Origin: Trichlorobacter lovleyi SZ
GTDB lineage: Bacteria > Desulfobacterota > Desulfuromonadia > Geobacterales > Pseudopelobacteraceae
Length of the DNA stretch: 32,000 nucleotides
Direction of reading: 5' to 3'
Assembly: GCF_000020385.1 (NCBI RefSeq)
Contig: NC_010814.1
Span: forward strand, 870,001-902,000
Shown here in pieces: positions 1 to 15,866 of the stretch. Within the stretch, counting starts at the first letter, position 1. The number at the start of each line of letters is the position of its first letter. The position numbers and the translations under genes are program-made. Below the pieces are notes generated by a model. That model was not told the origin of the DNA. It was given only the letters and a program-made list of their open reading frames with translations, and did not search any database.

Positions 1-856
1 ACAACATCCCAGGGATTTCATCTTGCCAAATGGCTGCACGGCCTATTTCACCGCCTTCACATACAAGAAGGTCTCCCTTTCTCAGTTCATATTTTGTGAT
101 TTCTCGTTCATCAAATGACATTTGAGGCAATTCGCCAAAGTCAAATTTCCCCCAAAGCACATTATTGTTTTTTATATAGGTTTTTTGATTGGAACCAAAA
201 CGAGCTTTTTCCGAGCTCATTTTCCCAAGCTGAATTTCATAACAATCAGCGATCTTTTTTTTGTTGTTTTCAGGGAGGCTATTGAAGCTTTCCAACAAAG
301 CTGCTTTGAATAATAGCTGAGCAGATGATCTTGCGCTGACAAGGTTATCTATCGTTTCCTCAACAGCCAGAAGTAACTCGACAATCCGCCGCTGCTCCTC
401 CAACGGCGGCAGCGCAAACTCAAAATCAGCAAGACTTGTCCAGTTGGTTCGCGGACTCAGGCTGCCTGCCGATGTCCCGACTGCATGCTGAAAGAATGCT
501 TCAGTCTGGCAGATGAACGGCAGTAGTTCCGGAAGGAGTTTCTTCGGGTCTTTGCTCTCCAGCACATAAATGTCGCCTGAACAGACTCCGGCAAAATCGG
601 CCACCGCTACCTTGCGTTGATATGCCCGACGTTTGCCGAACAGAACCTGTCCCGGCTTGAACACGCTGGTAAAGGTGACACCATCGGCAACATTGCCCCA
701 GCGCCGGACGCGCAAGTCCTCCGGGTCAATGTGCTCCAGACCGATGTACCGCTCATAACCATCGGCAAGCGGATCGCTGCTGCGCTCTTTCGAAAGGCGC
801 ACGACATCCCCGAATTTGACCTTCTGCCAGCCGGGCTTTATAGGGTTACTACTCAT
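1..856 (-). CDS. hsdS: Type I restriction-modification specificity subunit HsdS (5' part; continues beyond window start)
   Basis: Hand translation of the minus strand from ATG 856-854 gives MSSNPIKPGWQKVKFGDVVRLSKERSSDPLADGYERYIGLEHIDPEDL... The central conserved helix LPPLEEQRRIVELLLAVEETIDNL is followed by the start of a second target-recognition domain. The frame stays open to position 1. It is absent from the ORF track because it is truncated by the window edge. Confidence 0.85.
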   Translation of the reverse strand, partial: MSSNPIKPGWQKVKFGDVVRLSKERSSDPLADGYERYIGLEHIDPEDLRVRRWGNVADGVTFTSVFKPGQVLFGKRRAYQRKVAVADFAGVCSGDIYVLESKDPKKLLPELLPFICQTEAFFQHAVGTSAGSLSPRTNWTSLADFEFALPPLEEQRRIVELLLAVEETIDNLVSARSSAQLLFKAALLESFNSLPENNKKKIADCYEIQLGKMSSEKARFGSNQKTYIKNNNVLWGKFDFGELPQMSFDEREITKYELRKGDLLVCEGGEIGRAAIWQDEIPGML

Positions 857-1256
857 CGTCAGATTCTTCCTCGTCAGGTAAAGCCAACTTTCTCATCCAG
901 TCAGCAAAATCACTCAGGCTCTCGGCACCGTCAGGGGCGATAGTCCACCATCCCAACGTCAAATCAGAAAACTCTCCGTGAATGGTCAGTTCAACATATT
1001 CGCCGTCGCAAACCAAAGGGCTGACAGGAAAAGCTGGTAGCGTTGCCCGGCGCAGCAGATCAAGCTGTTGAGTTACTTCATCGGCTGGAACAGTAACTCG
1101 CCAGCGTTTGCGTGATGGTCCCTGCTGTTCAGTCACCTGGATATGATATGCATCACCCCGTTGCACCAGCTTCAGCAAATGGACTGAGAGCGGCATGAAA
1201 CCGCAACTCGGTGTTATGCGCAGGCGGGCTAGTTCAATTTGATCAGACACGGGCAT
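849..1256 (-). CDS. Hypothetical 135-aa protein with acidic C-terminal tail (DEEESDDE), translationally coupled to hsdS
   Basis: ORF-track ORF. GTGAGG Shine-Dalgarno lies about 5 nt upstream of the ATG at 1256. Its stop TAG (851-849) overlaps the hsdS ATG (856-854) by 8 nt. No family recognised. Confidence 0.6.
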   Translation of the reverse strand: MPVSDQIELARLRITPSCGFMPLSVHLLKLVQRGDAYHIQVTEQQGPSRKRWRVTVPADEVTQQLDLLRRATLPAFPVSPLVCDGEYVELTIHGEFSDLTLGWWTIAPDGAESLSDFADWMRKLALPDEEESDDE

Positions 1257-1277
1257 AGCGCCTCACAATACCGAAAC

Positions 1278-1967
1278 TCATGTGTCTGTTCTCCATTCAC
1301 CAGGTAGCGCAAATTCTTCCCAGACTTTCTGAAAAAACGGTCCAAGCAGTTCCTCCGCCGTTATATCGTATGTAGTGATGATTAATTGGCCGGAAAGTAC
1401 CTCGTCTATTGGGCAGCAGCCTTGGGGGTACATTCCAAAGCGCCTTTCCGCAATTTTGAAATCTTCGACACCTGAAAGTCCAACAATGATTTGTATAGGC
1501 GGCTCTATTCGAAGTTGATTTCGCATGAAAGCGAGATATGTACTTAGACCGTCACACAATGAAGTTAAGAGGACGGCAAACGGGATAAATTTATTTTCTT
1601 GCGCATGGAGAGTTGGTTGCTCGATTCCCCAAATCTCACCATTACGGAAAAGCTGAGTTACATAACGAGTTGGGTTGCTGCCAGTTGCAACTTCATAGCA
1701 GACACCGCCATCAGTATTGGCCATTATTAGACCGCCAGAAGACTTGCCAAGTGGAGGTAGTTGCCTAGTGTTGAGGAGATCAAGGATGCCCTTTGTTGTC
1801 ATCTCGGTTGTACCGGTATATGGGATTAAACGCAAAAACCACTGGGGGCCATTGTTCCAGTAGACGTTAGTTGGATCGCCACCGAAGGCAGATCTATCAT
1901 CCTTCCCCAGTAAATCTCCTTTGATAAAACTGGAAGATTTCCATACCGGCTCAACTCCTTTGAATAC
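1278..1967 (-). pseudogene. C-terminal fragment of an IS-split 412-aa gene (unknown C-terminal domain)
   Basis: The minus-strand frame ...VFKGVEPVWKSSSFIKGDLLGKDD... continues exactly from the fragment at 3370-3926 once the IS and one copy of the 8-bp duplication are removed. The N-terminal 50 aa of the 280-aa track ORF are read from IS sequence and are artefactual. Confidence 0.8.
1960..1967. repeat. Target-site duplication TTGAATAC (left copy) of the ISL3 insertion
   Basis: An identical 8-mer directly flanks both IS ends (1960-1967 and 3370-3377). Confidence 0.85.
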
Positions 1968-3369
1968 GGTTCTTCCGCAGAATTTATGGGTAACTGACCT
2001 GCCGAAGATGGTCTGAGCAGCTACCTGGTGAACGAAATAGAGCATCCCGCCTACAAATCTGTCATTGTGTGTTTCGACCAAGAAACCCAATACAGACAAG
2101 GAGAGCGGGATGCAGCTCAAGTCTATACTGAATTTCGTTCAACCGCATCAAGGTTTTGTGTATGGCGCTGTCCACCAGCGAAACAAGGGACAGCGCACGG
2201 TCCTTGACATTGAGATCCGCCCCCGCAAGAACAGGCAGCCTGTCTGTTCCAGATGCGGCAAACCTGGTCCCGGCTATGACACCTTGCCTGTGCGCCGGTT
2301 TGAGTTCGTGCCGCTATGGGGCATTGCCGTGTTCTTCCTCTACGCCATGCGCCGGGTCAGTTGCCCATCCTGCGGTGTGAAGGTGGAACAAGTCCCCTGG
2401 GCCACCGGCAAGAACCACCTGACCACCACCTATGCCTGGTTCCTGGCCCGCTGGGCCAGGCGGTTGTCGTGGAAGGAAGTGGGGCAAGTGTTTCAGACCA
2501 GTTGGGACAACGTCTTCCGCTCGGTCAAAATGGCCGTTGCCTGGGGACTGGCCCACCGCGACCTCGACACCATAACCGCCATCGGCATCGACGAGATTGC
2601 CTGGAAAAAGGGGCACAAGTACCTGACCCTGGTTTACCAGATCGATGCCGGATGCAAACGCCTGCTGTGGGTCGGCAAGGAGCGGACCCAGAAAACGTTG
2701 CGGCAGTTCTTCAAGGAGTTTGGCAAAGAGCGAACAGCACACCTTCGGTTCATCTGCAGCGACATGTGGAAGCCATACCTGCGGATCGTCGCCGAGGTTG
2801 CAGGTCAAGCCATGCATATCCTTGACCGGTTCCATGTCATGACCCACTTCGGCAAAGCTGTCGACAAGGTCCGGGCAACGGAAGCCAGAGAACTGAAAGC
2901 CAAGGGCCAGGAACCGGTGCTGACCGGTAGCCGCTGGTGCCTGCTCAAACGGCCTGAACACCTGACGGAGAAGCAGAGCATCAAGCTGAATGAACTGCTG
3001 GCCATTAACTTGAAAACCGTCCGGGCCTATCTCCTCAAAGAGGAGTTCCAGTTCTTCTGGCGCTATGCCACTGCGGGCTGGGCTGCCAGATTTCTGGATG
3101 CTTGGTGCAAAAGAACCATGAGGTCACGCATCATCCCGATGAAGAAGATTGCCAAGATGCTGCGCTCGCATCGGGAGCTGTTACTCAACTGGTTTCGGAC
3201 CAAAGGGCAGGTTGCCTTGGGGGCCGTAGAAGGATTCAACAACAAGGCTAAAGTGACCTCACGTAAAGCATACGGTTTCAGAAACTTTGAAGTGATGAAA
3301 ATCGCCTTGTATCATACACTTGGCAACCTGCCAGAACCTGAGGCTACCCACAGATTCTGCTGAAGAGCC
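1968..3369 (+). mobile_element. ISL3-family insertion sequence, 1402 bp, complete
   Basis: Terminal inverted repeats are GGTTCTTCCGCAGAATTTATGGGTAAC (1968-1994) and the reverse complement of 3343-3369, GGCTCTTCAGCAGAATCTGTGGGTAGC (22/27 match by hand). There is an 8-bp direct duplication, a single transposase ORF, and the stop codon lies inside the right IR. Confidence 0.9.
2110..3363 (+). CDS. ISL3-family transposase (IS204/IS1001/IS1096/IS1165 type)
   Basis: N-terminal zinc finger CSRCG...CPSCG is followed by a DDE domain. AAGGAG lies 6 nt before the ATG at 2110 (MQLKSILNF...), which I prefer over the track start at 2065. Confidence 0.9.
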   Translation: MQLKSILNFVQPHQGFVYGAVHQRNKGQRTVLDIEIRPRKNRQPVCSRCGKPGPGYDTLPVRRFEFVPLWGIAVFFLYAMRRVSCPSCGVKVEQVPWATGKNHLTTTYAWFLARWARRLSWKEVGQVFQTSWDNVFRSVKMAVAWGLAHRDLDTITAIGIDEIAWKKGHKYLTLVYQIDAGCKRLLWVGKERTQKTLRQFFKEFGKERTAHLRFICSDMWKPYLRIVAEVAGQAMHILDRFHVMTHFGKAVDKVRATEARELKAKGQEPVLTGSRWCLLKRPEHLTEKQSIKLNELLAINLKTVRAYLLKEEFQFFWRYATAGWAARFLDAWCKRTMRSRIIPMKKIAKMLRSHRELLLNWFRTKGQVALGAVEGFNNKAKVTSRKAYGFRNFEVMKIALYHTLGNLPEPEATHRFC

Positions 3370-3377
3370 TTGAATAC
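3370..3377. repeat. Target-site duplication TTGAATAC (right copy)
   Basis: See 1960-1967. Confidence 0.85.
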
Positions 3378-3926
3378 TAACTGTGGACACTCCTTTGGGC
3401 CTACCTCTCGAAGCATCCCACCAATAATCTCCGCCAAATCTTTCGTGACCTTCTTTTGAACCTTTTCCGCCTCTTCTTTACTAGCATCTGGCGCTAATGT
3501 GTAACAATACGGGAAGCGTTTGTGCGCCATATCAAACGGTAGCCCATCTTTTGCCGAGCCGTAATGCTGGTTCAATACCTTAAGTGTTCGAGAAGGGCCT
3601 GCAGCCTGTATCGCATATCCTAGTTCCAGCAGCACGTTGGGGTTTGGGCACTGTTTGGCTGCAGCGGTTTTAGCGACAATCGTTATGTCAGCGACAAAGA
3701 GATCGCATGTTTCGATTTTCTTGAGGATTGTGTTTAATACCTCAACGTCTCCAAATACTCCTTTGGTGTCGTGGTCGAGGTGCAACTCGTCACCGCGGGC
3801 TACCTCTTCCAGAAGGCCATCGCCGGTAATTATCTTCAGAGCATCTTCGAGGCAAATTTTGAGAAAGCGGTGGTTTGTTTTTGGATCGGCATCACTCTGC
3901 CAGCTATAGAATACTTTAAGCGGCAT
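3370..3926 (-). pseudogene. N-terminal fragment of the IS-split gene: TIR-like / nucleoside 2-deoxyribosyltransferase-like domain
   Basis: MPLKVFYSWQSDADPKTNHRF...CDLFVADITIV...NPNVLLELGYA shows the pattern of TIR-like/NDT-like (SLOG-type) domains, with an (E)xGyA acidic motif. AGGGGAA RBS precedes the ATG at 3926. The last 18 aa of the 204-aa track ORF are read from the IS right end. Confidence 0.75.
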
Positions 3927-3972
3927 GAAAATTATTCCCCTTTGTTGCTGATCAATTTAGCCAAATGTTTTT

Positions 3973-5451
3973 TCAACGGGCTGTTCTTTCGATGGTTTCA
4001 ACAAGTAAATCCATCTTCTGCCAAAAGTTACGTCTTTCATCCTGCCACTGCTGCCATACCGATTCCAGGCTTTGTGTTTCACCGATGGAGACGCTACCAC
4101 CATTATTCCGCTTCACATACAACGGAATCGACAGGTTTGAACCGTTGGCGGCGATCTCCTCAAGGGTGGCTACCTTGGCAAAACCGGCATCGTCCTGGAA
4201 ATTTCTGAAAGCCGCCAGAATCCGGTCCTGATGCTCGGGCTTGAGGAAACTCTGCGCCCGCTCACGGGTGACTTCGTTGAGAGCGTCGATAAAGAGCACC
4301 TTGCCCTTGCGCTCCCCTGTCTTGTTGCGACGGCAGACAACAACGCACGATTCCATCGGCGAGTTGTAAAAGAGGTTCGGTCCCAAGCCGATGACCGCCT
4401 CTACCAGGTCCTGGGCGATCATCTTAGCCCGCATCTCTTGCTCTTCATTGCGGAACAGCACCCCATGCGGCCAGAGGATGGCGCAGCGACCCTTCTTGGT
4501 CAGGCTTTTCAGGATATGCTGGAAGAAGGCATAATCAGCACGTCCCTGCGGCGGTGTACCGAGAAAATTCCTTCCCCATTTATCAGACTCGAAGGCTGGG
4601 CGGTCCCACTGCTTGATGGAGTACGGCGGGTTGGCCAGGATCACATCAAACTGCTTGAGCCGGTCCCCTTCGATCAGCTTCGGCTCTGCCAGGGTGTCAC
4701 CTCGCGCGATCTGAAAATCTTCGATCCCATGCAGGAAGAGATTCATCCGGGCAATACCGGAGGTCATCAGGTTGCGTTCCTGCCCATAAAGCTTGAGGGT
4801 GCGGTATTCGCCGCCGGTACGCTTTACCTCGGCCAGGGCCGACAGGAGCATCCCGCCAGTGCCGCAGGTGGGATCGTAGATCGACTCTCCCGGTTGCGGG
4901 TCCAGCAGTTGCGTCATCAGATGGACGACCGTGCGGTTCGTGTAGAACTCGGCCGCCGTATGGCCGGAGTCATCGGCGAACTTCTTGATCAGGAACTCAT
5001 AGGCATTGCCCAATTCATCTTCCGGTACGTTGGCGACCGAGAGTGTCTGGGTCGAAAAGTGCTCGATCAGATCCTTCAGGGTCTCATCCGGCAACCGTTC
5101 CTTATTGGTCCAAGGGGCGTCGCCAAAGATGCCGGTCAACTGGTCGGGGTTGGCCGCCTCGATGGCCCGCATGGCGGTCTGAATGGTCATACCGACATTT
5201 TTCGGGGTCTGGCGGACATCGCTCCAATGGAAACCCGCTGGTATCTGAAAGCGGTGATTCTCGGCAAAGTCGCCGCCGGATTCGTCCATTGCCTGCTGGT
5301 ACTCTTCGTCGTACACGTCGGAAACGCGCTTGAAGAACAGCAATGGAAAGATGAACTGCTTGTAGTCGCCGGCGTCGATCAGTCCGCGCAGGAGCGTTGC
5401 CGCACCCCAGAGGTAGGATTCCAATTCCTGTTGAGAGATGCGCGAGCTCAT
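3973..5451 (-). CDS. hsdM: Type I R-M DNA methyltransferase subunit, paralogue 2 (HsdM')
   Basis: HsdM_N-type N-terminus (LWGAATLLRG), motif I DPTCGTGG, motif IV NPPY. EFYTNRTVV replaces the usual EFYTPR. The ATG overlaps the upstream hsdM stop (ATGA at 5448-5451). Confidence 0.9.
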   Translation of the reverse strand: MSSRISQQELESYLWGAATLLRGLIDAGDYKQFIFPLLFFKRVSDVYDEEYQQAMDESGGDFAENHRFQIPAGFHWSDVRQTPKNVGMTIQTAMRAIEAANPDQLTGIFGDAPWTNKERLPDETLKDLIEHFSTQTLSVANVPEDELGNAYEFLIKKFADDSGHTAAEFYTNRTVVHLMTQLLDPQPGESIYDPTCGTGGMLLSALAEVKRTGGEYRTLKLYGQERNLMTSGIARMNLFLHGIEDFQIARGDTLAEPKLIEGDRLKQFDVILANPPYSIKQWDRPAFESDKWGRNFLGTPPQGRADYAFFQHILKSLTKKGRCAILWPHGVLFRNEEQEMRAKMIAQDLVEAVIGLGPNLFYNSPMESCVVVCRRNKTGERKGKVLFIDALNEVTRERAQSFLKPEHQDRILAAFRNFQDDAGFAKVATLEEIAANGSNLSIPLYVKRNNGGSVSIGETQSLESVWQQWQDERRNFWQKMDLLVETIERTAR

Positions 5452-6938
5452 TGCAACCAGCCTCCATCCGTCATTAACTGTTCCAGACGGGTCTCTGCCT
5501 CGCGACAGCGTTCGAGAGCCGACTTGAACTCTGCTATGGCCTGGGGCAACGGCGGAATGTCGTCATTGAGCGGCGGCAAGACATAACGTGAGATATTCAG
5601 GGTCCAGTCCTCGGCCTTTATCTCATCGGTGCTGACGATCCGCACCCGATCCTGCACATCGATGAACGCCTGATACCAGCCAAGAATCTCGGCACCATGT
5701 TCCGGCTCAAGGTAATTCTGTGCCCGGCCACGCCGGAACAAGCTGGAGGCGTCGGCGATCATCACCTTCCTTTTGCGTTCAGCCGGCTTGCGCTTGCGCA
5801 GCAGGAGGATGCAGGCAGCAAGGCCGGTACCGTAGAACAGGTTAGGCGCCAGGCCGATAACACCTTCTATCAGATCCATCTCCAGCAACTTGCGGCGAAT
5901 CTCACCTTCCACGCCTTTGCGGAACAGTGCTCCCTGTGGCAACACCACCGCCATCCGTCCGGTAACTTCTGCCATGGACTTGACCATGTGCTGTACCCAG
6001 GCAAAATCACCGCTGCTTGAGGGGGGAAGGCCGGCAAAGTTGCGGCCGAATGGGTCGTTGAGCCAGACTTCTTCCCCCCACTTTTCCAGTGAAAAGGGGG
6101 GATTGGCAATGACGCAGTCAAACGTCGCCAGACGATCACCTTCAAAGAAAGCCGGATTGCGCAGGGTGTCGCCCCGGACAATCTGGAAATCTTCAATACC
6201 GTGCAGGAACAAGTTCATCCGGGCGATGGCCGAAGTAGTCAGGTTCTTTTCTTGGCCGAACAGCTTGCCCCAGAGGAGCTTGGTGTCGCCATGCAGCTCA
6301 TGAACGTGCTGGAGGGCTGCCAGCAGCATGCCGCCGGTACCGCAGGCAGGGTCATAAATGGAGTCGCCTTCCTTTGGATCGAGCATATCCACCATGAGCC
6401 GGACAACGCTACGCGGGGTGTAGAACTCGCCGGCTTTCTTGTTGGTGGCGTCGGCAAATTTCTTGATCAGGTATTCGTAAGCATCGCCCAATACATCCGA
6501 GGCGACATTTCGGTTGCCAAGGGGGAGCCGGGAGAAATGCTCGATCAGATCTTTCAGCAGAGCATCGGTCAGGCGATCCTTGTTGGTCCACTGGGCATCA
6601 CCAAAGACCGCATACAGCGTATCCGGATTGGCCTTTTCGATTTCACGGAGCGCCCGCTGCAGGGCATTGCCCACATTGACCGGTGTCTCACGGATATCCC
6701 GCCAGTGACAGCCTTCCGGCACCTGGAATCGGTGAGATTCGGGAAACATCGCCAGTTCCGGATCACCCATCTCTTCTGCGATTTCCTGATACTCCTCATC
6801 CCAGACGTCACAGATCCGCTTGAAAAACAGGAGCGGAAAGATGTAGGTCTTGAAATCAGCAGCATCGACCGGCCCACGGAGGATGTTGGCTGATTCCCAG
6901 AGGTGATTTTCGAGTTGGGAAAGAGGGAGAAGCGTCAT
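5448..6938 (-). CDS. hsdM: Type I R-M DNA methyltransferase subunit, paralogue 1 (HsdM)
   Basis: LWESANILRG N-domain, EFYTPRSVV, DPACGTGG (SAM motif I), NPPF (motif IV). Confidence 0.9.
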   Translation of the reverse strand: MTLLPLSQLENHLWESANILRGPVDAADFKTYIFPLLFFKRICDVWDEEYQEIAEEMGDPELAMFPESHRFQVPEGCHWRDIRETPVNVGNALQRALREIEKANPDTLYAVFGDAQWTNKDRLTDALLKDLIEHFSRLPLGNRNVASDVLGDAYEYLIKKFADATNKKAGEFYTPRSVVRLMVDMLDPKEGDSIYDPACGTGGMLLAALQHVHELHGDTKLLWGKLFGQEKNLTTSAIARMNLFLHGIEDFQIVRGDTLRNPAFFEGDRLATFDCVIANPPFSLEKWGEEVWLNDPFGRNFAGLPPSSSGDFAWVQHMVKSMAEVTGRMAVVLPQGALFRKGVEGEIRRKLLEMDLIEGVIGLAPNLFYGTGLAACILLLRKRKPAERKRKVMIADASSLFRRGRAQNYLEPEHGAEILGWYQAFIDVQDRVRIVSTDEIKAEDWTLNISRYVLPPLNDDIPPLPQAIAEFKSALERCREAETRLEQLMTDGGWLQ

Positions 6939-6978: not shown

Positions 6979-8193
6979 CTAACGTGACAGCACCGGGTAC
7001 AGCTCCGGGAAAAACCAGCCGGCGGCATGGATCGGGAAGCCGATCCTGACTTCTCCCTTGGGGGTATCTGATACAAGTAGCCCTTCGGCTACAAGCTGAG
7101 CCAGCAGATTTCTCCCGGTCCGCTCTTTCAGGCCGGATGCCTCGATGACCGCTCCCCGTGGCGCTTCGCCTCGCAGCAGGACCTCCTGCAGCATCCTGGC
7201 CGACTCCGGTCGCAAGTCGTCGCTGCCAGGCGGATTGGGGATTATGGCGGTGCCGCGCAGCTGCACATAGCTTCTGACCCGTTCCACCAGGCCGTCCAGT
7301 TGCAACAGTGTGCCCATGTAGTCCACCTGATCCCGGCAGACCTCCAGGAAGAACCGGCAGAATTTCACCAGCCCCTCGTTGGACAGATTGCCCCTGCCGT
7401 CCAGATCATTCCGCCGTGGCGCATCGGCCCAGGTGAGAGCAGACTTGTAGTCGATATTCCTGCGGGCGAGCCCCCGGCTGACCGACCAGAGGCCGAAACC
7501 GTGCACCGGAATACGGTGGAGATACGCTTCGGTGAACAGGCGGGCCACCCTGCCGTTGCCGTCGAGAAAGGGGTGAATCCACATCAGCCGGTGATGGGCC
7601 GCTGCCGCCGCCACCAGCTTGGCAGCGCCGTGATGCTTTTGGGGAGCATACGATTCGCCGAACCTTACCATGAACGCGTTCAGACTGTCATGCCCCGGTG
7701 GCTCATGTTGTCCGACCTTGACAGGCTGTGTGCGCAGCTCACCTGGTATCACCCGGCTTTCACGGCCAGTATCCGGATTGGTCATGATCTGGAATTCTTC
7801 AGGCAGCAGCTTGAAAAACTCCCGATGCAGCGAACAGAGAAACTCCTGTCCGGCAATGTTGGGCGCCGCTTCCTCCTGTAACCACGCTTCCATCTGCCGC
7901 TGTACGGCAATATGGGCCACGCTTTCCAGTTGCAGGTTGCGTTTGGCCGGCTCGGTGTCGTACTGCTGCTGCATGGCCCGGACAATGTCGTGCGGGTGGG
8001 TATTGTGCCCTTCGATGAGGTTGGAGTAGTAGCTGTTGATGATCCTGAGCAGCTCGCGAAGGGTGTGCAGGGTAATGGGGTGCAGCCGGGTACCGAGCGA
8101 TGCCGAGAGTTGTATTACCTCCAGGGCCAGATCCTGAAGATCATCGGCCCGCTCCGGAAACAGCGGTGTCATCTGACTGATTGCATCGGGCAT
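6979..8193 (-). CDS. Fic-family protein (AMPylase-type) with N-terminal inhibitory motif and C-terminal winged-helix-like region
   Basis: Canonical Fic motif HPFLDGNGRVAR. An (S/T)xxxE(G/N) inhibitory-helix motif, SNLIEG, lies in the N-terminal part. The gene ends 40 nt upstream of hsdM on the same strand. Confidence 0.85.
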   Translation of the reverse strand: MPDAISQMTPLFPERADDLQDLALEVIQLSASLGTRLHPITLHTLRELLRIINSYYSNLIEGHNTHPHDIVRAMQQQYDTEPAKRNLQLESVAHIAVQRQMEAWLQEEAAPNIAGQEFLCSLHREFFKLLPEEFQIMTNPDTGRESRVIPGELRTQPVKVGQHEPPGHDSLNAFMVRFGESYAPQKHHGAAKLVAAAAAHHRLMWIHPFLDGNGRVARLFTEAYLHRIPVHGFGLWSVSRGLARRNIDYKSALTWADAPRRNDLDGRGNLSNEGLVKFCRFFLEVCRDQVDYMGTLLQLDGLVERVRSYVQLRGTAIIPNPPGSDDLRPESARMLQEVLLRGEAPRGAVIEASGLKERTGRNLLAQLVAEGLLVSDTPKGEVRIGFPIHAAGWFFPELYPVLSR

Positions 8194-8925: not shown

Positions 8926-9570
8926 TTATCCCGGATTAAACAGGCAGGTGAGCTTTGTCCCGCTGTTCAGATAATCAGTGATTTTCCCCTGTAGCTGTTT
9001 GATTTCTTCGACAGTGAAGTTGACAGGATCGGCGACGTGCCATTCCGGGAGCATCTTCAATTCAAAAACAGTCAGATTGAATTTCTTAAGAGTCCTTTTT
9101 TTGAAGAACTTCATCCACCAGAACGGAGGTGTTACCTCGATGCCGAGTCGTCCTGCCAATTCATTGTAAAGCTCTGACTTGGGCGTCAGAAACATATGGC
9201 AATCGACTAAGCAGGTATTGCGAGTCGCGATATCAGTGATGAAGAATTCATCTATTGCCACGCGGTTTTGCAGTAAATACTTTTTTCCGTTCAGTTCCAC
9301 CGGCCATGTCTCAGTATTGCAGATGTAATTGAGCACCAGTTCATGGGCTATCCCCTTGGAGTGTTTGCCATACTCCACCAGACAACCCTCGGGGTAGGCA
9401 AAGGTGGAGGCTGCTCCGCGGTCTATCGGGTGCAGTTCTCTCAGCAGGGTAAGGTCGTAAAAGCACCGCTTTCCCCATTTATCAGGATATTGCCGCTGCA
9501 ACCGCAGTGCTTCATGAACAGTGATGATCGGACTGGAATAATCAGGATACAGGTGCGCCAACAGTCTCAT
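8926..9570 (-). CDS. Hypothetical protein (214 aa), last gene of a four-gene coupled module
   Basis: ORF-track ORF. Its start overlaps the upstream stop (ATGA at 9567-9570). No family recognised. Confidence 0.6.
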   Translation of the reverse strand: MRLLAHLYPDYSSPIITVHEALRLQRQYPDKWGKRCFYDLTLLRELHPIDRGAASTFAYPEGCLVEYGKHSKGIAHELVLNYICNTETWPVELNGKKYLLQNRVAIDEFFITDIATRNTCLVDCHMFLTPKSELYNELAGRLGIEVTPPFWWMKFFKKRTLKKFNLTVFELKMLPEWHVADPVNFTVEEIKQLQGKITDYLNSGTKLTCLFNPG

Positions 9571-10037
9571 AAATCCTTCTTGATAATTGTGTAATCAGGC
9601 GACAGTAGATTGATGGCCTTGCCGACGGCGATATCCAGCATGATCACCTCCTGGGCGCTCAGATAGACCTCGCCGGCAGGCATGCCATTGTCAGCCACAC
9701 TGACTTCCAGGGACTGGATGCCGTTCTTCTGCCGGGCAATCATGTTGAGTGCCTGCGGATTGAAGTCATCATCATGAAAAAGTGCCATCGCCAGTTCGAT
9801 CTTGCTGCCCGCCTTGCTGCTCCGTTTCCAGTAGGCCTGCATGAAGTAGCTCAGGGTGGACTTCACCATGGCCAGTTCAAACAGGTCATTGAAGATGACA
9901 AAATCCCAGAAACTGACCTTGACGTTGGTATTCCTGTCGAACCGATTCACGTGATGACTTCCGGAATCCTTGAGCTCGCGCCATGATATCTCTGCCGTGG
10001 CGTACACGCAGATTCCCTTAAATTCGAAATCAATCAT
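9567..10037 (-). CDS. Hypothetical protein (156 aa)
   Basis: ORF-track ORF with an 8-nt overlap with the upstream gene (10030-10037). No family recognised. Confidence 0.6.
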   Translation of the reverse strand: MIDFEFKGICVYATAEISWRELKDSGSHHVNRFDRNTNVKVSFWDFVIFNDLFELAMVKSTLSYFMQAYWKRSSKAGSKIELAMALFHDDDFNPQALNMIARQKNGIQSLEVSVADNGMPAGEVYLSAQEVIMLDIAVGKAINLLSPDYTIIKKDL

Positions 10038-10518
10038 TTTTCTCCACCTCCTTCCAGAGCTTGCTCAGATACGTTGCCGATACTTTCAGTTTCCGCTTGC
10101 TCTGCAGATAGCCGGCAATAACACGAAAGCCCATGCCATCGGACTTCAGGGCTTTCACTTCACCCCAATAGGCCAGGATCTTCCGGCGCAGGACCGGTTT
10201 CCTCCCCCTGGTGACAAGGGTCGCTGCCGCCGCTCGCCGCAGATGAGTGAAATCTTCGTACTGCTCCTGATCCGCCACCCGGTAGCCTTTACCTTTGATC
10301 GTGTCCCACCCCCCCTTGCGGGCGGCCATGACAAAGGCGCAGTACTTGGTGATCCTGCCGGAAAGATCAGGCCGCTCGCCCTTGAGCTGGAACGAACGCT
10401 TCACCCCGTCCTGGAAGATCTCGATGATCTGCTCTTCCGGCAGCGAAGCCACCCAGGAAAAGAGCTTCTTCCGCTCATGTTCCGTCAGGCCGGTAATCAG
10501 GTTCAGTTGTTCGGTCAT
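10030..10518 (-). CDS. Hypothetical protein (162 aa) with probable C-terminal helix-turn-helix
   Basis: The C-terminus RKILAYWGEVKALKSDGMGFRVIAGYLQSKRKLKVSATYLSKLW resembles resolvase/Hin-type HTH. The ATG lies 1 nt after the upstream stop (TGAcATG). Confidence 0.55.
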   Translation of the reverse strand: MTEQLNLITGLTEHERKKLFSWVASLPEEQIIEIFQDGVKRSFQLKGERPDLSGRITKYCAFVMAARKGGWDTIKGKGYRVADQEQYEDFTHLRRAAAATLVTRGRKPVLRRKILAYWGEVKALKSDGMGFRVIAGYLQSKRKLKVSATYLSKLWKEVEKND

Positions 10519-10519
10519 G

Positions 10520-11485
10520 TCATCCTCTCGTGTAGGTCAGGATCTCCCGCAGCCGGAAATGGGAGGTTTCCAGGGAAGTCTGCTGCAAGGCCTGCTCGTG
10601 TGTCAGGCCATGGGCGATGCATTCCAGGTAGCGTTCTTGGGCGAAGTTATGCTTGAGCCCGTGACTGCCACGGCCCGGGGCATACTGGCCGGTCTGGTGA
10701 GCTGCGGCATTGATTGCCTCTACATAGGCGAAATAATCGCTTTCAAGTTTTCCGTGCCGGGAGATATATTCTTCCAGCCTTTGGTAGGTCGAGACTGAGA
10801 CGAAGTGCTCGGTCTTTTTGCCACCTTTCTCCACCGAGGCGACAACACCTACTGGAGAGGAGGTGACTGGATCGGCACTGATGCCGCGCAGCCCGTTACT
10901 GGTCAGCGGGTTTTTCAGCCGCCGGTTGCTGGGAGCGCCGACACCTTCGGTGCGCAGACCGCCTTCGTACTGCAGTGACGCCTGCAACTGGAAAGTCCCG
11001 TCACTGATGGCGGCGATCAGCCGAACCGGATCGGGATAGGCCCGGTTGTCGAAGAGCTTGCTCGACTTCCGGAGTTGAGTTCTGCTTCTGGCGTAGAAGT
11101 CCATGCGCAGTTTTTCTGCCTCCAGGCGGGGAATCTTCAGAGCATGGATCTCGATATAATGATTGATGGCGTACTCGAACTTTCCCAGGGCCGACAGGAT
11201 GGTCTCCATGGTCTGACGGGAGCGTTTCTTTTCGACATAGTGCGCCAGCCGCTCCTCCAGGTACGCCGCCATGTCGTCGTGAGCGGACGCGGTATCAAGA
11301 ATGGAAGTCCGTCCGTTTCCGATCATGAACTCAACGAAGCGATGGGCCTCGTATTTGTAGACCTTCCAGGAGCCGAAGGAACGGATGCCCAGGGCGCTGT
11401 CCGCCTTTGCCTCACGGATCGAGCGGACCGCGTGGAAAATCGCTTCTGTCTGGGAGTGCAGTGATGTCGGCCACCTGTGTTTCAT
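10520..11485 (-). CDS. Divergent tyrosine-recombinase-like protein (321 aa)
   Basis: Motifs occur in the order expected for the integrase catalytic domain: GGLRTEG (Arg I), VEKGGKKTEHFV (beta-hairpin Lys), HGLKHNFA (HxxR box, but with Lys), C-terminal LTYTRG (candidate Tyr). Confidence 0.55.
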   Translation of the reverse strand: MKHRWPTSLHSQTEAIFHAVRSIREAKADSALGIRSFGSWKVYKYEAHRFVEFMIGNGRTSILDTASAHDDMAAYLEERLAHYVEKKRSRQTMETILSALGKFEYAINHYIEIHALKIPRLEAEKLRMDFYARSRTQLRKSSKLFDNRAYPDPVRLIAAISDGTFQLQASLQYEGGLRTEGVGAPSNRRLKNPLTSNGLRGISADPVTSSPVGVVASVEKGGKKTEHFVSVSTYQRLEEYISRHGKLESDYFAYVEAINAAAHQTGQYAPGRGSHGLKHNFAQERYLECIAHGLTHEQALQQTSLETSHFRLREILTYTRG

Positions 11486-11988
11486 TAATTACCTCTGACC
11501 GTTGCCGGCCCGCGTGGTGAGATGACATGCTCTTTTTCCGGCATCGCCATGCCGACGGTAGCAGCTCCGTCTTCCTGCTTTTCGTAGTGTCCCTTGTATC
11601 CGGACCGGGCAGGGATTCCTGCCGTCTGTCCTGCTGTCTGTCATGAACCGGGACGCTACCGGTGGTTCACATCAAACAGGTCCTCGATTGTGCTGTTCCG
11701 GGAAACGCCTCGCCACTGCGTTCAGGACTCAGGGGCCGATACCTGATCCGCCATCTAATGGTTTCCGGTACAACGTTCGATCATGCGAGGGGGAGGTGCA
11801 TTGACCTCGACATGAAAGGGCTCTGCTTAGGTTGGCCAATCCCTTGGGTGGTGTCCGGCCGGGCCATAAGACTCACCAGCTCTTGGTACACCGTGCAATG
11901 ATGCTGCGAAAAATCTCTCCTATCTGAAAAGTCGTAACTGTTTTGTTTGTTTCCAATATCCAGGCAACATACTGATTAATCATAGCTT

Positions 11989-12990
11989 TCAGTGGGTGTG
12001 CTCACCGGTAATGCCGGTATTTGTGATCATTTGTGAGCGGCTTTCCCAGGCAGTCAGCCTGGCAAGCGCAACTGCTCCCTCTTCCGGAATGCACTGTCCG
12101 AATGGTGATGAAACCTTGATATCATCGATGAATTTCTGACGTGCCTCTTCGGACAGTGAGTGCCAGTAGTCGTCCCGTTCTATTGACTCCTGTGCTTCTG
12201 TCTCGCTCAGTTTTTCCTGCTTGTCTTTCTCGGCACGTTTCCGTTCTGCGGCAGCCTTTGACTTGGCAGCGCGAACATACGGAGGCTCATACAATTCCGG
12301 TAAAACGGGGTTCACGCAGAGGGACTGGAGATAGCCGCCGGGGTTCCGGATCTCCTTGTGCTCCCGTCGCCAGGATACTGCGGCGATATCAGCAGCCAGT
12401 TCGACCTTTTCCTCGCCGTGGCGCTTGATCAGAACGATCAGTTCATTGTCAGAAACGACTGAAAAGGGAGTGTCAGACAACAACGAGTGGATCTGTTCTG
12501 TTGTTGTCTTTTCTATCTTCTTTTCTGTTCTGTTCTCTGGCGTGACGTCACGTGACCGGTCAACGTGACTGTCACGTGACACGTCGCCAGGCTCTGGAAG
12601 AGCAAGAAGATTGTCGCGCTGCTTTTTCCGGTGTCGCTGTTTGCGCTCCCGGTCATTTTCCCGGCGCTTTTCCAGCTTGTCTTCGCTCTGATACTTGCTC
12701 CAATTGGCAATGAAAATTATGCCGTCCTGCTGGTCGATCATTTCCAGACCGGCAAAGATGGTAAGACCGAGCTGAACTGTCGGCAGGGCAATATCCGTCA
12801 CCATGCTGATGGTTTCAGCTGTGTATGGCAGGCTGTCGGAAACCATCAGGTATCCCCCTCGGTTGCATTTACCGGCTTCCGCCAGCATCAGAAGCCAGAG
12901 CAAGACGAGCGTATTGCCTTCCGGTCCTTTGCGGATCATCTTGATTTTCCGATGATCCAGTATGTTGCACATGATCTTGATCCAATCCAT
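11989..12990 (-). CDS. Phage/plasmid replisome-organizer-like replication protein
   Basis: The N-terminus MDWIKIMCNILDHRKIKMIRKGPEGNTLVLLWLLMLAEAGK...IANWSKYQ is typical of the phage replisome-organizer N-terminal domain. A basic/acidic low-complexity linker follows. Confidence 0.7.
   Translation of the reverse strand: MDWIKIMCNILDHRKIKMIRKGPEGNTLVLLWLLMLAEAGKCNRGGYLMVSDSLPYTAETISMVTDIALPTVQLGLTIFAGLEMIDQQDGIIFIANWSKYQSEDKLEKRRENDRERKQRHRKKQRDNLLALPEPGDVSRDSHVDRSRDVTPENRTEKKIEKTTTEQIHSLLSDTPFSVVSDNELIVLIKRHGEEKVELAADIAAVSWRREHKEIRNPGGYLQSLCVNPVLPELYEPPYVRAAKSKAAAERKRAEKDKQEKLSETEAQESIERDDYWHSLSEEARQKFIDDIKVSSPFGQCIPEEGAVALARLTAWESRSQMITNTGITGEHTH
12541..12586. repeat. Iteron-like cluster: four CGTGAC cores (three as ACGTGAC, two as the palindrome GTCACGTGAC)
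   Basis: CGTGAC is seen at 12541, 12551, 12564 and 12575, a spacing of 10-13 nt. A roughly 47-nt pyrimidine-only-rich tract (12494-12540) lies immediately beside it. All of this is inside the replisome-organizer gene linker. Confidence 0.5.
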
Positions 12991-13020
12991 CTTAATACCT
13001 TTTGTCCGGCAGTAAGGCGA

Positions 13021-13269
13021 TCAGGCTGTACTGCATGCTGTAGACCCGGGTGTGACTCCGGCCTTTCTGCACTGCACCGCTGACGAGTGAGGATTTGCCG
13101 GATCGTATAGGGTCAGCATCTCGACTTGTGCCCTGACGCTTTCCTGCTTCATTTTCTCGTTCACCAGGCGGATCACTCCGACACTGAGGATTGAAGTAAT
13201 TCGATTGAGGCGTTGTTCAGGAGTCATGTGGAAATTTCTCGATAGCTGTTTCAGCTGGACACAGAACAT
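13021..13269 (-). CDS. Possible small Cro/excisionase-position ORF (82 aa, or 68 aa from the ATG at 13227)
   Basis: It occupies the position of a first leftward gene opposite the repressor, but neither candidate ATG has a convincing RBS and no family was recognised. Confidence 0.3.
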   Translation of the reverse strand: MFCVQLKQLSRNFHMTPEQRLNRITSILSVGVIRLVNEKMKQESVRAQVEMLTLYDPANPHSSAVQCRKAGVTPGSTACSTA

Positions 13270-13283
13270 TTCATTGTGTTATT

Positions 13284-13352
13284 TGTTACCATAATTAATC
13301 TTCAGTTTACGCTATCGCGTAATAATGTTACTATTAATAGTAAATATGTTAC
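13284..13352. promoter_or_regulatory. Divergent switch region with three (A/T)ATNTGTTAC(C/T) repeats (candidate operators)
   Basis: TGTTAC occurs at 13284-13289, 13326-13331 and 13347-13352, a spacing of 42 and 21 nt. The repeats sit in an AT-rich 104-bp spacer between the divergent leftward ORF and the XRE repressor. Confidence 0.45.
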
Positions 13353-13379
13353 CTTGTCAAGGGGTTTTTAGGGGTGTCT

Positions 13380-14111
13380 ATGCGCATTGCTGAATTGTTT
13401 CGCAGAGCCAGGGAAGCAAAGGGGCTGAAGCAATCGGATATTGCGGATCAGTGCGGTATTTCACGGTCGGCACTCGCCCGTTTTGAGACGGGGTCATTGC
13501 GCCTTGCCGAGGAGACATTGTTACTGATAGCTCCACTCCTCGACATAGATCCCGAGTTTCTGCGCGGTAATGCCAAGATTCCGTTCAAAAGCCCGACCGG
13601 ATCGCTGATCAAGTATGTAGTTGACAAATACCACGTCAACAGTGACGTGCTTCTTTCGAGACTCCTTGCGCTAAGCGATGTTCTTGAAATCTATTACTTG
13701 TCTCCGCCTCTCACGATTGTTGATCGCATTCGTCACCTCAATGTTGCCTCAAATCCGACCTATGCTCTTCTTATGAAAGATGAGGCCGGGAATGTTTATC
13801 TGTTCAGATGTAAGTCTCCCAAGGACTTTCTTGCCTGGGATGACAGTATCTCTTCATGGCAGAATGAACAGCGCAAAATGGCCGGGAAAGGCGGCCACTT
13901 CGAACCGTTGATTATCTCAAAGGAATTGTTTGAGAAGATTCGTGATTGGCAGGACATCGACAAGGAAGACCTTGATGCCGTGTTCAGCCAGAAGACTGAG
14001 AATCTCATCTATAAAGGGATTGCCCTCAGCGAAGCGGAAAAGAAATTGATTCTTTTCATTCGTGACCACCATCTCGATCCTGAAGAAACCATCCAGAAAC
14101 TCCAGCAGTAA
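13380..14111 (+). CDS. XRE-family (cI-like) HTH transcriptional regulator with C-terminal domain of unknown type
   Basis: The N-terminus LFRRAREAKGLKQSDIADQCGISRSALARFETG is a classic HTH_XRE. I prefer the ATG at 13380 (AGGGGT RBS) over the GTG at 13374. Confidence 0.8.
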   Translation: MRIAELFRRAREAKGLKQSDIADQCGISRSALARFETGSLRLAEETLLLIAPLLDIDPEFLRGNAKIPFKSPTGSLIKYVVDKYHVNSDVLLSRLLALSDVLEIYYLSPPLTIVDRIRHLNVASNPTYALLMKDEAGNVYLFRCKSPKDFLAWDDSISSWQNEQRKMAGKGGHFEPLIISKELFEKIRDWQDIDKEDLDAVFSQKTENLIYKGIALSEAEKKLILFIRDHHLDPEETIQKLQQ

Positions 14112-14180
14112 ATCTCCCTACTTTGCCCAGTTGATAGCACCTTGCCGTGGCGATTTCCGGCAGATGGATAATTGTGTCTC

Positions 14181-14209
14181 TTGAATATACAACGGGTATC
14201 TGATACACT
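14181..14209 (+). promoter_or_regulatory. Candidate sigma70 promoter TTGAAT-N17-TACACT for the recombinase gene
   Basis: Hexamers at 14181-14186 and 14204-14209, upstream of the GGAGGT RBS and the ATG at 14232. Confidence 0.3.
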
Positions 14210-14231
14210 TGCAAAACTTTTGGAGGTGTCT

Positions 14232-15866
14232 ATGGCTGAAATTGCTGATAATGATCGCAAGTGTGCACTATACGTCCGGGTGTCGACAATCAACCAGGCC
14301 GAGGACGGCGAGTCCCTCGACGAGCAGGTTCAGACTCTGAAGAGCTATTGCTCCTACCGTAAATGGCAGAATTGTACGGTGTATCGGGAGGAAGGCTTTT
14401 CGGGGAAGGATCTGAAGAGGCCGGCGTTTCAGCAGATGGTTGCCGATATACGCAAGGGGAAGATCAATACGGTCATCGTGAAAAAGATTGACCGTCTCTC
14501 CCGCTCGATCATCGATTTCGAAAACGTTTACAAGTCTTTCCAGGACCAAGGTGTCGATCTTATCTCGACACAGGAGAATTTCGACACATCGACCGCAATC
14601 GGCAGAAGCGTCATCAGGATCGTGCTCATTTTCGCTCAGCTGGAACGGGAGCAAACTTCGGAACGAACTATCGATGTCATGGCGCACCGGGCGAAACAGG
14701 GAATGTTCAACGGCGGCTATCCCCGACTCGGCTACGACATAGACTATGAAAATAAATGCCTTGTCCCGAATGAAGATGAGATCCCCATTGCGAAAGAGGT
14801 TTTCACAACCTATCTGAAGCTGGGCTCATTGAGCGAAACTGCCAAGTCGCTCAATGAGCGAGGGTATCGGGTGAAAACCTGGACAACCCAGGCAGGGCGG
14901 ACACGAGGGGGAGATAAATTCCAGAAAAACAATGTCAGCCGGATGCTGAACGATCCGGTGTATATCGGCAAGGTGCGATACAAGAGCGGAATCTATGATG
15001 GACAGCAGCCGGCGATCATCAGCGAGGAGCTTTTCGAAGCTGTCCAGACGATTCTTCAGGCGAACAATATCTCCAAAACCGGCTACCGCCAGAACGAGAA
15101 TACCTTTTATCTGAAAGGATTGGTCAGATGCGGGTCATGCCGTTCATCCATGTCACCGAGCTTTTCCTATTCCAAGGGGAAGAAATACTACTATTACCGA
15201 TGCATGGTAAATAATGACCACAGCAAGGATCAATGCCGGATCGGCAGCGTCCATGCCCGTAAGCTGGAAGACCTGGTTGTGAATGAGCTGAAATTTCTTG
15301 CCGGTGATCCACGGATTATTGATGGTGTCGTCGAGAATGCTTCAAAGGAGCAGCGGGAAAAGGTGAAGGCGCTTGCCGCCAAGAAGAAGGTATTGACGGA
15401 TCGGCTGACCCAGGTTGACAAGAAGGCGAAAAATCTGCTTGAGGTCCTTGGGGAGGGGGGCACCCAGAATAATCGCTCTGGCTACATCACCAAGGAGCTT
15501 GACGGGCTGGAGATTCAGGCGAAGCAGATGCGGAAAGAAATCGAAGCCATTGAGTTCGAATCGAATGACCTGGAGAATAAGATTCTCAGCGCCGACATGA
15601 TCCGGGAAAATTTCAAAATCTTCAAGGACGTGTATGAGCACCTGACCCATGACGAGAAATATGATCTGCTGCACCTGCTCGTGAAGAAGGTCGTCTATTT
15701 TGAAGAAGAGGGAAAAGACAAGGACGGCAAGAAGGTGGGGAAAATAAAAATGGATCTATGGGAGCTGCCTCCCATAGATCCATCTATACTGAGCTCAGCA
15801 AAGGATTTTGCTGAGCGTCATGTTTGGCTCCCCAGCGCGGACTCGAACCACGGACATGGTGATTAA
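14232..15866 (+). CDS. Large serine recombinase (integrase)
   Basis: Catalytic N-domain ALYVRVSTINQ ... KIDRLSRS, a recombinase domain, a zinc-ribbon (CGSCRSS...YYRCMVNNDHSKDQC) and a coiled-coil. Start taken at MAEIADN (GGAGGTG RBS). The 3' end of the ORF reads through the tRNA terminator and 42 nt of antisense tRNA-Asn. Confidence 0.9.
   Translation: MAEIADNDRKCALYVRVSTINQAEDGESLDEQVQTLKSYCSYRKWQNCTVYREEGFSGKDLKRPAFQQMVADIRKGKINTVIVKKIDRLSRSIIDFENVYKSFQDQGVDLISTQENFDTSTAIGRSVIRIVLIFAQLEREQTSERTIDVMAHRAKQGMFNGGYPRLGYDIDYENKCLVPNEDEIPIAKEVFTTYLKLGSLSETAKSLNERGYRVKTWTTQAGRTRGGDKFQKNNVSRMLNDPVYIGKVRYKSGIYDGQQPAIISEELFEAVQTILQANNISKTGYRQNENTFYLKGLVRCGSCRSSMSPSFSYSKGKKYYYYRCMVNNDHSKDQCRIGSVHARKLEDLVVNELKFLAGDPRIIDGVVENASKEQREKVKALAAKKKVLTDRLTQVDKKAKNLLEVLGEGGTQNNRSGYITKELDGLEIQAKQMRKEIEAIEFESNDLENKILSADMIRENFKIFKDVYEHLTHDEKYDLLHLLVKKVVYFEEEGKDKDGKKVGKIKMDLWELPPIDPSILSSAKDFAERHVWLPSADSNHGHGD
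15741..15782 (-). terminator. Intrinsic terminator downstream of tRNA-Asn (minus strand)
   Basis: Minus-strand reading is TGGATCTATGGGA-GGCAGC-TCCCATAGATCCA, a perfect 13-bp stem, followed by TTTTTATTTT. A second 9-bp hairpin (GCTCAGCAA-N6-TTGCTGAGC, 15793-15816) lies between it and the tRNA. Confidence 0.7.

Follow-up and report, generated by a model that had tools for sequence, protein, structure and literature searches.

Fusions of a TIR effector to a sensor are already known, as are accessory genes inside restriction-modification (R-M) operons. Within SfSTING's TIR domain, E84 is catalytic and F6 is likewise part of the pocket lining (PMC9402430), and a beta-hairpin at the junction of strand C and helix C has been described for CAP12/Pycsar TIR domains (PMC13142454). 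For bacterial Schlafens, a sensor-plus-effector logic has been shown experimentally, with a faster-evolving sensor reported for pSlfn5 (PMC13056530), and abortive-infection (Abi) proteins of the AbiJ type combine one conserved non-catalytic domain with many enzymatic effectors, among them HEPN, restriction endonuclease (REase), TIR and nucleoside deoxyribosyltransferase domains (PMC3710099). Here we analyze a stretch of 32,000 nucleotides from Trichlorobacter lovleyi SZ (NC_010814.1, positions 870,001 to 902,000 of the forward strand; hereafter the window, to which positions refer) and within it a gene that is split by an insertion sequence (IS) and is located within a type I R-M operon. It probably encodes a stand-alone, single-protein Abi module, namely a sensor-gated TIR NADase that was carried as cargo of the R-M operon and inactivated by the IS in strain SZ. 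New in this system are the putative sensor domain, the breadth of its effector partners and a defined cassette slot.

An insertion sequence splits a 412-residue gene in strain SZ

An ISL3 element of 1402 bp at 1968-3369 interrupts a minus-strand gene of 412 aa (3926..1278), which comprises the following parts, listed in the direction of the gene:

3378..3926, minus strand: 5' fragment, codons 1-183 (TIR-like N-domain and most of the linker helix); GenBank hypothetical protein ACD94572.1 (204 aa, with an IS-encoded tail)
3370..3377: right copy of the target-site duplication, TTGAATAC, codons 184-186
1968..3369, plus strand, opposite to the operon: ISL3-family IS, 1402 bp, with inverted repeats at 1968-1995 and 3342-3369
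2065-3363, plus strand: transposase open reading frame (ORF) of the IS, likely ATG at 2110, PF01610
1960..1967: left copy of the target-site duplication, TTGAATAC
1278..1967, minus strand: 3' fragment, codons 184-412 and stop (C-domain, putative sensor); partly GenBank hypothetical protein ACD94570.1 (255 aa)

The element carries the hallmarks of an ISL3 insertion: a transposase with a DDE_Tnp_ISL3 domain (PF01610, E=2.5e-81), terminal inverted repeats that are imperfect (about 22 of 28 positions match), an 8-bp target duplication present as direct repeats of TTGAATAC on either side of the IS (1960-1967 and 3370-3377), and an empty site in relatives. Excision of the IS together with one repeat copy yields an open frame of 1239 nt on the minus strand, 3926..1278, encoding 412 aa. 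Its junction reads ...ECPQLVFKGVEPVWKSS..., exactly as the initial annotation had given it. The insertion point coincides with codons 184-186, in the low-confidence interdomain linker of the AlphaFold model.

The intact gene exists in nature. Contigs L093 (SRR21915715) and L109 (GCA_047291845.1) both carry it uninterrupted, with 0/1239 nt differences from the reconstruction and just one TTGAATAC where the site is empty; because of these two copies, the 412-codon frame is not a product of chance. L109 matches the window with 100% identity across 9.5 kb once the IS and one copy of the repeat are set aside, and the exact reconstructed protein sequence is already recorded (P0316). The reference-genome annotation lists the two halves as two unrelated hypothetical proteins. 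The IS junction is present in three further sequencing runs. Since intact alleles without a single difference and IS junctions both exist in public sequences, the insertion is recent and polymorphic in T. lovleyi. The initial annotation had proposed one IS-split, reconstructible gene, and this reading holds. It had also suggested that the insertion relieved toxicity, a claim that finds no support: genomes that are identical in other respects retain the intact allele, so relief of toxicity is not needed to explain the insertion. Alternatively, the IS may have been beneficial through a polar effect on hsdS and hsdR. A scan of positions 700-4200 for promoters and terminators gave nothing above shuffled expectation.

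Two side observations concern the disrupted allele. After insertion (3312-3926 and 1278-2120), the N-terminal fragment still forms an intact ORF that has a start of its own and whose 204 aa consist of the TIR domain and 18 residues encoded by the IS; a sensor-less TIR domain may therefore still be expressed in strain SZ. Furthermore, three short-read assemblies from T. lovleyi-containing samples (L090, L092, L094) break exactly 30 bp inside the IS (1968-1997), which suggests that the IS is multi-copy in the underlying genomes; a search for a second copy within the window found none.

The N-terminal domain resembles TIR domains

The N-domain spans approximately residues 1-145. An AlphaFold model of the whole protein, built on 73 sequences, reached a predicted local distance difference test (pLDDT) score of 87 and displays a flavodoxin-like, five-stranded beta/alpha fold at this position, which superposes on solved TIR domains. 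The best match in the PDB by Foldseek is the TIR domain of SfSTING (7un8, E=1.2e-5), followed by nucleoside 2'-deoxyribosyltransferases (NDTs), DNPH1, SARM1, the plant TIR domains of RPS4/RRS1 and the TIR domain of IL-1RAcP. Among the viral models of BFVD, a CAP12/Pycsar TIR protein ranks first (E=2.1e-9, root-mean-square deviation 2.9). Sequence searches of the PDB, with the family profile or with the N-domain alone, found nothing, and searches of NCBIfam and PHROGs gave nothing useful. At E<=0.01, however, 32 of the 73 family members match PF10137, the CAP12/Pycsar TIR family (best 3.3e-5).

Ten residues are invariant in the 73 aligned sequences (F6, W9, Q10, D12, D51, D80, N95, N97, E101 and N119). 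Glu101, identical in 73/73, lies within the model helix 96-109 that corresponds to helix C, and the spacing of N95-x-N97-x3-E101 equals that of R78-x-N80-x3-E84 in SfSTING. The model also has a beta-hairpin (83-86 and 92-94) between strand C and helix C. According to the model, the N-domain is thus a divergent TIR fold of the CAP12/Pycsar/TIR-STING type, and it is probably an NAD+ glycohydrolase acting via Glu101. The domain also occurs with other, unassigned C-termini (for example P0043 and P0051).

The initial annotation had described this region as TIR-like or NDT-like, and structure comparison bears out both resemblances. In a rival reading, the N-domain would be no NADase but a nucleotide or nucleoside N-glycosidase or transferase (of the NDT, DNPH1 or MilB kind) that degrades, for instance, (modified) deoxynucleotides, and the C-domain would bind its substrate. 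NDTs and DNPH1 are matched by Foldseek at E values of about 5e-4 to 2e-3 (8pqq, E=4.5e-4), BFVD also returns viral hmCMP hydrolase and NDT models, and PF05014 (nucleoside deoxyribosyltransferase) is found in 3/73 members (best 0.0017), the query itself having no match. The matches to TIR-STING and CAP12 are stronger, however, PF10137 is matched ten times more often than PF05014, and the other partners of the C-domain are bona fide TIR_2, SEFIR and CAP12 TIR domains and nucleases, with no NDTs among them. We consider a glycosidase of this kind unlikely.

The C-terminal domain is shared by different effectors

The C-domain (approximately residues 190-412, 225 aa) has an alpha/beta fold and, modelled alone, a pLDDT of 94. 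It had been left without a family in the initial annotation and stays outside known families here: searches of Pfam, NCBIfam and PDB sequences gave no match, and no solved structure matched with confidence. The domain is possibly similar to TATA-binding protein (TBP), judging from the model. This label rests on weak Foldseek matches and on the order of strands and helices, because an internal duplication, as in a TBP-like pseudo-dimer, was not detected when the two halves were compared by hhalign (probability <1%).

A search of 1.84 billion representative proteins for the C-domain recovered 597 relatives, counted as 50%-identity representatives, mostly with the same architecture of 400-440 aa. 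Other N-terminal partners were scored in 134 scanned C-domain proteins:

TIR_2: 10 members
CAP12/Pycsar TIR: 6 members
Schlafen AlbA_2: 5 members
SEFIR: 4 members
HNH endonuclease: 2-3 members
GGDEF: 1 member

Domains are hence exchanged on both sides of the fusion, a constant C-domain being combined with different effectors and the N-domain with other C-termini. Sequence conservation is lower in the C-domain, with a median identity of 29% versus 48% in the N-domain, and the N-domain is the more conserved one in 72/72 homologues. Because the C-domain is constant behind swapped toxic enzymatic domains and evolves faster than the N-domain, it would be a sensor placed on interchangeable effectors. 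A metal-dependent nuclease is a different assignment for the C-domain, against which its single conserved acidic residue argues.

The partner domains also bear on the question whether a signalling nucleotide is produced by the TIR domain, in the manner of Thoeris, with the C-domain being a signal-activated effector or with the effector encoded elsewhere. Fusion of the C-domain to GGDEF, a nucleotide cyclase, is in line with such a scheme, and the invariant polar residues N267, Q288, E294 and W296 could bind a ligand. The C-domain is also found, however, on direct killing enzymes that make no signal (Schlafen, HNH), and no conserved neighbouring gene accompanies the family. A signal-generating TIR is accordingly quite unlikely.

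A variable cassette slot in a type I R-M operon

The split gene is embedded in a type I R-M operon, between hsdM and hsdS, as initially annotated. On the minus strand the genes are ordered Fic (8193..6979), hsdM-A (6938..5448), hsdM-B (5451..3973), split gene (3926..1278), a 135-aa ORF (1256..849) and hsdS; according to same-species contigs, hsdS (386 aa) is followed by hsdR (993 aa) past the window start, so that the complete order is hsdM-A, hsdM-B, gene, orf135, hsdS, hsdR. The features of the operon are:

6979..8193, minus strand: Fic/DOC-domain gene, operon head; position variable among relatives
5448..6938, minus strand: hsdM-A, 496 aa, NPPF motif, 53% identical to hsdM-B
3973..5451, minus strand: hsdM-B, 492 aa, NPPY motif
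1252..4008, minus strand: cargo cassette, 1347 bp once the IS and one copy of the repeat are subtracted, delimited by blastn of the window against the empty-slot contig L089
849..1256, minus strand: 135-aa ORF with an acidic C-terminal tail, constant R-M accessory gene
1..856, minus strand: hsdS, first 285 codons; the gene starts at 856 and leaves the window

Relative to L089, the cassette replaces 45 bp, including the last approximately 12 codons of hsdM-B. With a G+C content of 0.46-0.48 it is some 10 points lower than the hsdM genes (0.567), in agreement with the higher AT content noted initially. Between hsdM-B and the 135-aa gene, the slot occurs in three states: without an insert in L089 and L099, with a Schlafen-HisKinase gene in L087, L088, L095 and L096, and with a member of the split-gene family in the window, in L093 and L109 and in the contig of P0001. 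The closest orthologues, P0001 (91%), L093 and L109, all share the position within the operon.

The 135-aa ORF, which like both gene fragments is identical to a GenBank protein of strain SZ, was considered as a partner or immunity protein of the split gene and rejected. In related two-hsdM operons, homologues of this ORF are located immediately upstream of hsdS whatever the cargo, be the slot empty, filled with Schlafen or filled with the split gene, and it therefore travels with the R-M operon. A comparison with the ORFs downstream of stand-alone homologues of the split gene revealed no homology either. The partnership suggested by the initial annotation is thus not upheld.

Members of the 135-aa family also occur in other settings. 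In L102 (5260-7799), one is located between hsdS and hsdR of a type I operon with a single hsdM and with a HEPN/MNT-like pair, and in L086 (1378-6704) another is found outside R-M, beside a CTD7-MC3-LmuB_C (Lamassu-like) cluster.

The family is patchily distributed and mostly stands alone

The split-gene family comprises 1541 clusters at 90% identity, which are distributed patchily across phyla and are all annotated as hypothetical. We analyzed the neighbourhoods of 84 family loci by clustering the ORFs within 5 kb and by searching for type I genes within 10 kb. Clustering identified no conserved neighbour gene, as only antisense artefacts and integrases recur, the latter within 5 kb in 7/84 loci. 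hsdM or hsdR was present within 10 kb in 2/84 loci; one relative (L059) has both genes nearby and another (L002) has hsdR. Members that are 45-67% identical occur singly, either beside integrases or in neighbourhoods of an ordinary kind. The lack of a conserved neighbour, the scarcity of type I R-M links and the stand-alone relatives beside integrases together indicate that the gene is a self-contained mobile unit. As side observations, two of the closest stand-alone homologues, in L003 (2659-8665) and L110 (1854-4721), with 66-67% identity, are situated directly downstream of a XerC/D-like tyrosine recombinase, and in L003 the gene follows ten small ORFs on the same strand, a run that might be an integron-like cassette array.

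These data allow an assessment of the PrrC-style effector proposed in the initial annotation, in which the HsdMS/R complex or the 135-aa protein would keep the gene product latent until restriction is disabled by a phage, whereupon it would fire. The location inside a type I R-M operon, the same position of the closest orthologues and the R-M genes near the L059 and L002 relatives are what such a guard would lead one to expect. At the family level, however, the proposal fails on the rarity of type I genes, the missing conserved neighbour and the relatives that live alone beside integrases. Moreover, the 135-aa gene is found in operons that lack the split gene and has no homologue with the stand-alone copies, and the slot accepts unrelated cargo such as Schlafen. 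Control by the R-M system is, in our view, improbable as a property of the protein, and functional coupling to R-M may exist in this particular operon.

Distribution is equally relevant to a non-immune role, i.e. a housekeeping or regulatory gene of nucleotide metabolism that happens to ride on mobile DNA. All members are annotated as hypothetical and some copies, such as P0009 in L001, sit among ordinary genes, as such a role would allow. It is nevertheless very unlikely in view of the patchy spread over phyla, the low G+C content compared with the host operon, the adjoining integrases, the Schlafen defence gene that takes the same slot elsewhere, and a C-domain common to nuclease and TIR effectors.

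Proposed function

We propose that a 1.35-kb cassette brought the gene into the variable slot of a two-hsdM type I R-M operon and that the gene product would act on its own. The C-terminal sensor or regulator would meet an infection cue and then drive oligomerisation of the TIR domain; the oligomerised TIR domain would switch on NAD+ depletion, and phage growth would stop. A very recent ISL3 insertion into the interdomain linker has inactivated the gene in T. lovleyi SZ.

Several results weigh against this proposal. The query itself scores 14.9 bits against PF10137 (E=0.027), below the gathering threshold of 24.7 bits, so that the N-domain is by the Pfam criterion a non-member and forms a divergent sister group of that family. 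PADLOC gives a weak match to a TIR effector (E=0.007), and the family is not among the 2023 defence models of PADLOC 2.0. The best structural match of the C-domain, TBP, is weak (E=3.5e-3, TM score 0.24-0.30 in Foldseek). GGDEF is a signal maker and no killing enzyme, and its fusion to the C-domain fits a sensor-plus-killer arrangement less well. A core motif (N267, G270, Q288, E294, W296) is kept across all C-domain architectures, and for this reason the C-domain could be catalytic or could bind a ligand or nucleic acid rather than recognise a phage protein. Finally, a literature search found no description or experimental study of any family member. Among the other explanations, the NDT-like glycosidase carries more weight than the signal-generating TIR, which in turn carries more than a non-immune function.

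A more far-reaching version appears fairly unlikely. It regards the C-domain as an infection sensor that is both new and widespread and that arms six or more effector classes (TIR domains of three types, Schlafen, HNH and GGDEF). Two-hsdM operons would reserve a slot for suicide modules made of one gene, and this cargo would be functionally tied to restriction, firing like PrrC as a back-up upon failure or inhibition of restriction. What the polar core of the C-domain recognises would in that case be a conserved cue, for example a nucleic-acid intermediate or a small molecule, and not a variable phage protein.

If the sensor-gated TIR NADase is correct, it represents an uncharacterised family of single-gene TIR defence systems with about 1,500 clusters at 90% and about 600 at 50% identity in many phyla. 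One identified trigger would then explain several systems, the sensor being common to Schlafen, HNH and other TIR effectors. The cassette slot, which exchanges defence cargo within a type I R-M operon, offers a concrete model of defence-island assembly. T. lovleyi provides a natural isogenic pair, with an IS knock-out in strain SZ and the intact allele in other populations, and the question is directly testable because both natural alleles exist.

The wider genomic island

Both tandem, divergent hsdM genes of the operon have intact NPPF/NPPY and DPxCGTG motifs (849-6938; also in L087, L089 and L109), and Methylomonas and metagenomes show the same gene order, hsdM-hsdM-(slot)-orf135-hsdS-hsdR. 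A second variable slot upstream of hsdM-A holds Fic/DOC in the window (6979-8193) and in L109, a DUF6088 and AbiEii pair in L089 (3048-4675), and, in the P0001 contig, a Pol-beta nucleotidyltransferase with a 149-aa gene; in L087 from Methylomonas, nothing lies between gyrB and hsdM. The R-M island belongs to a larger mobile element, which includes, at 8926-15866:

8926-11485: unassigned ORFs
11989-12990: gene with a phage replisome-organiser N-domain
13374-14111: helix-turn-helix repressor-like gene
14172-15866: large serine recombinase

From 16110 onward, multihaem cytochrome c and heterodisulfide-reductase-like genes follow. On the opposite side the island stops behind hsdR, where L109 has a Na+/H+ antiporter gene.

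Comparison with known systems

The gene shares with PrrC of the prr locus, an anticodon nuclease in a type Ic R-M operon, that it is an accessory and potentially suicidal gene in a type I R-M operon. Unlike PrrC, its family has no general linkage to R-M and shows no sign of control by R-M proteins; the two are not homologous, as Pfam, NCBIfam and PADLOC scans of the split gene found neither the ABC-ATPase nor the anticodon nuclease domain of PrrC. As in AbiJ-type proteins, one shared domain is combined with alternative effectors, whereas here the shared domain is C-terminal and unrelated in sequence and the set of effectors differs.

Prokaryotic Schlafens (pSlfn) are likewise single proteins with an effector and a sensor, and the C-domain itself is found on Schlafen nucleases in some proteins. 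A pSlfn-HisKinase gene fills the identical R-M slot in Methylomonas; this class gave no protection in the panel of the pSlfn study, which also lists 'TBP-like' sensor fusions (1.5%), a class untested there (PMC13056530). This listing agrees with the weak TBP match of the C-domain, to which the class may correspond. In contrast to pSlfn, the effector of the split gene is a TIR-like domain and not a tRNase.

The closest likeness in the effector is to the TIR domains of TIR-STING (SfSTING) and CAP12/Pycsar proteins of CBASS and Pycsar, with which it has the helix-C glutamate at the same local spacing and the hairpin between strand C and helix C in common. It differs from CAP12/Pycsar TIR domains in falling below the PF10137 threshold and in a distinctive, invariant N-terminal motif, F-Y-S-W-Q-S-D. 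The C-domain is neither STING nor SAVED, and since no cyclase is encoded nearby, the trigger is presumably not a CBASS or Pycsar nucleotide. Like TIR-STING, the protein nevertheless unites in one polypeptide a TIR domain and a C-terminal regulatory domain, and oligomerisation would be the expected mode of activation.

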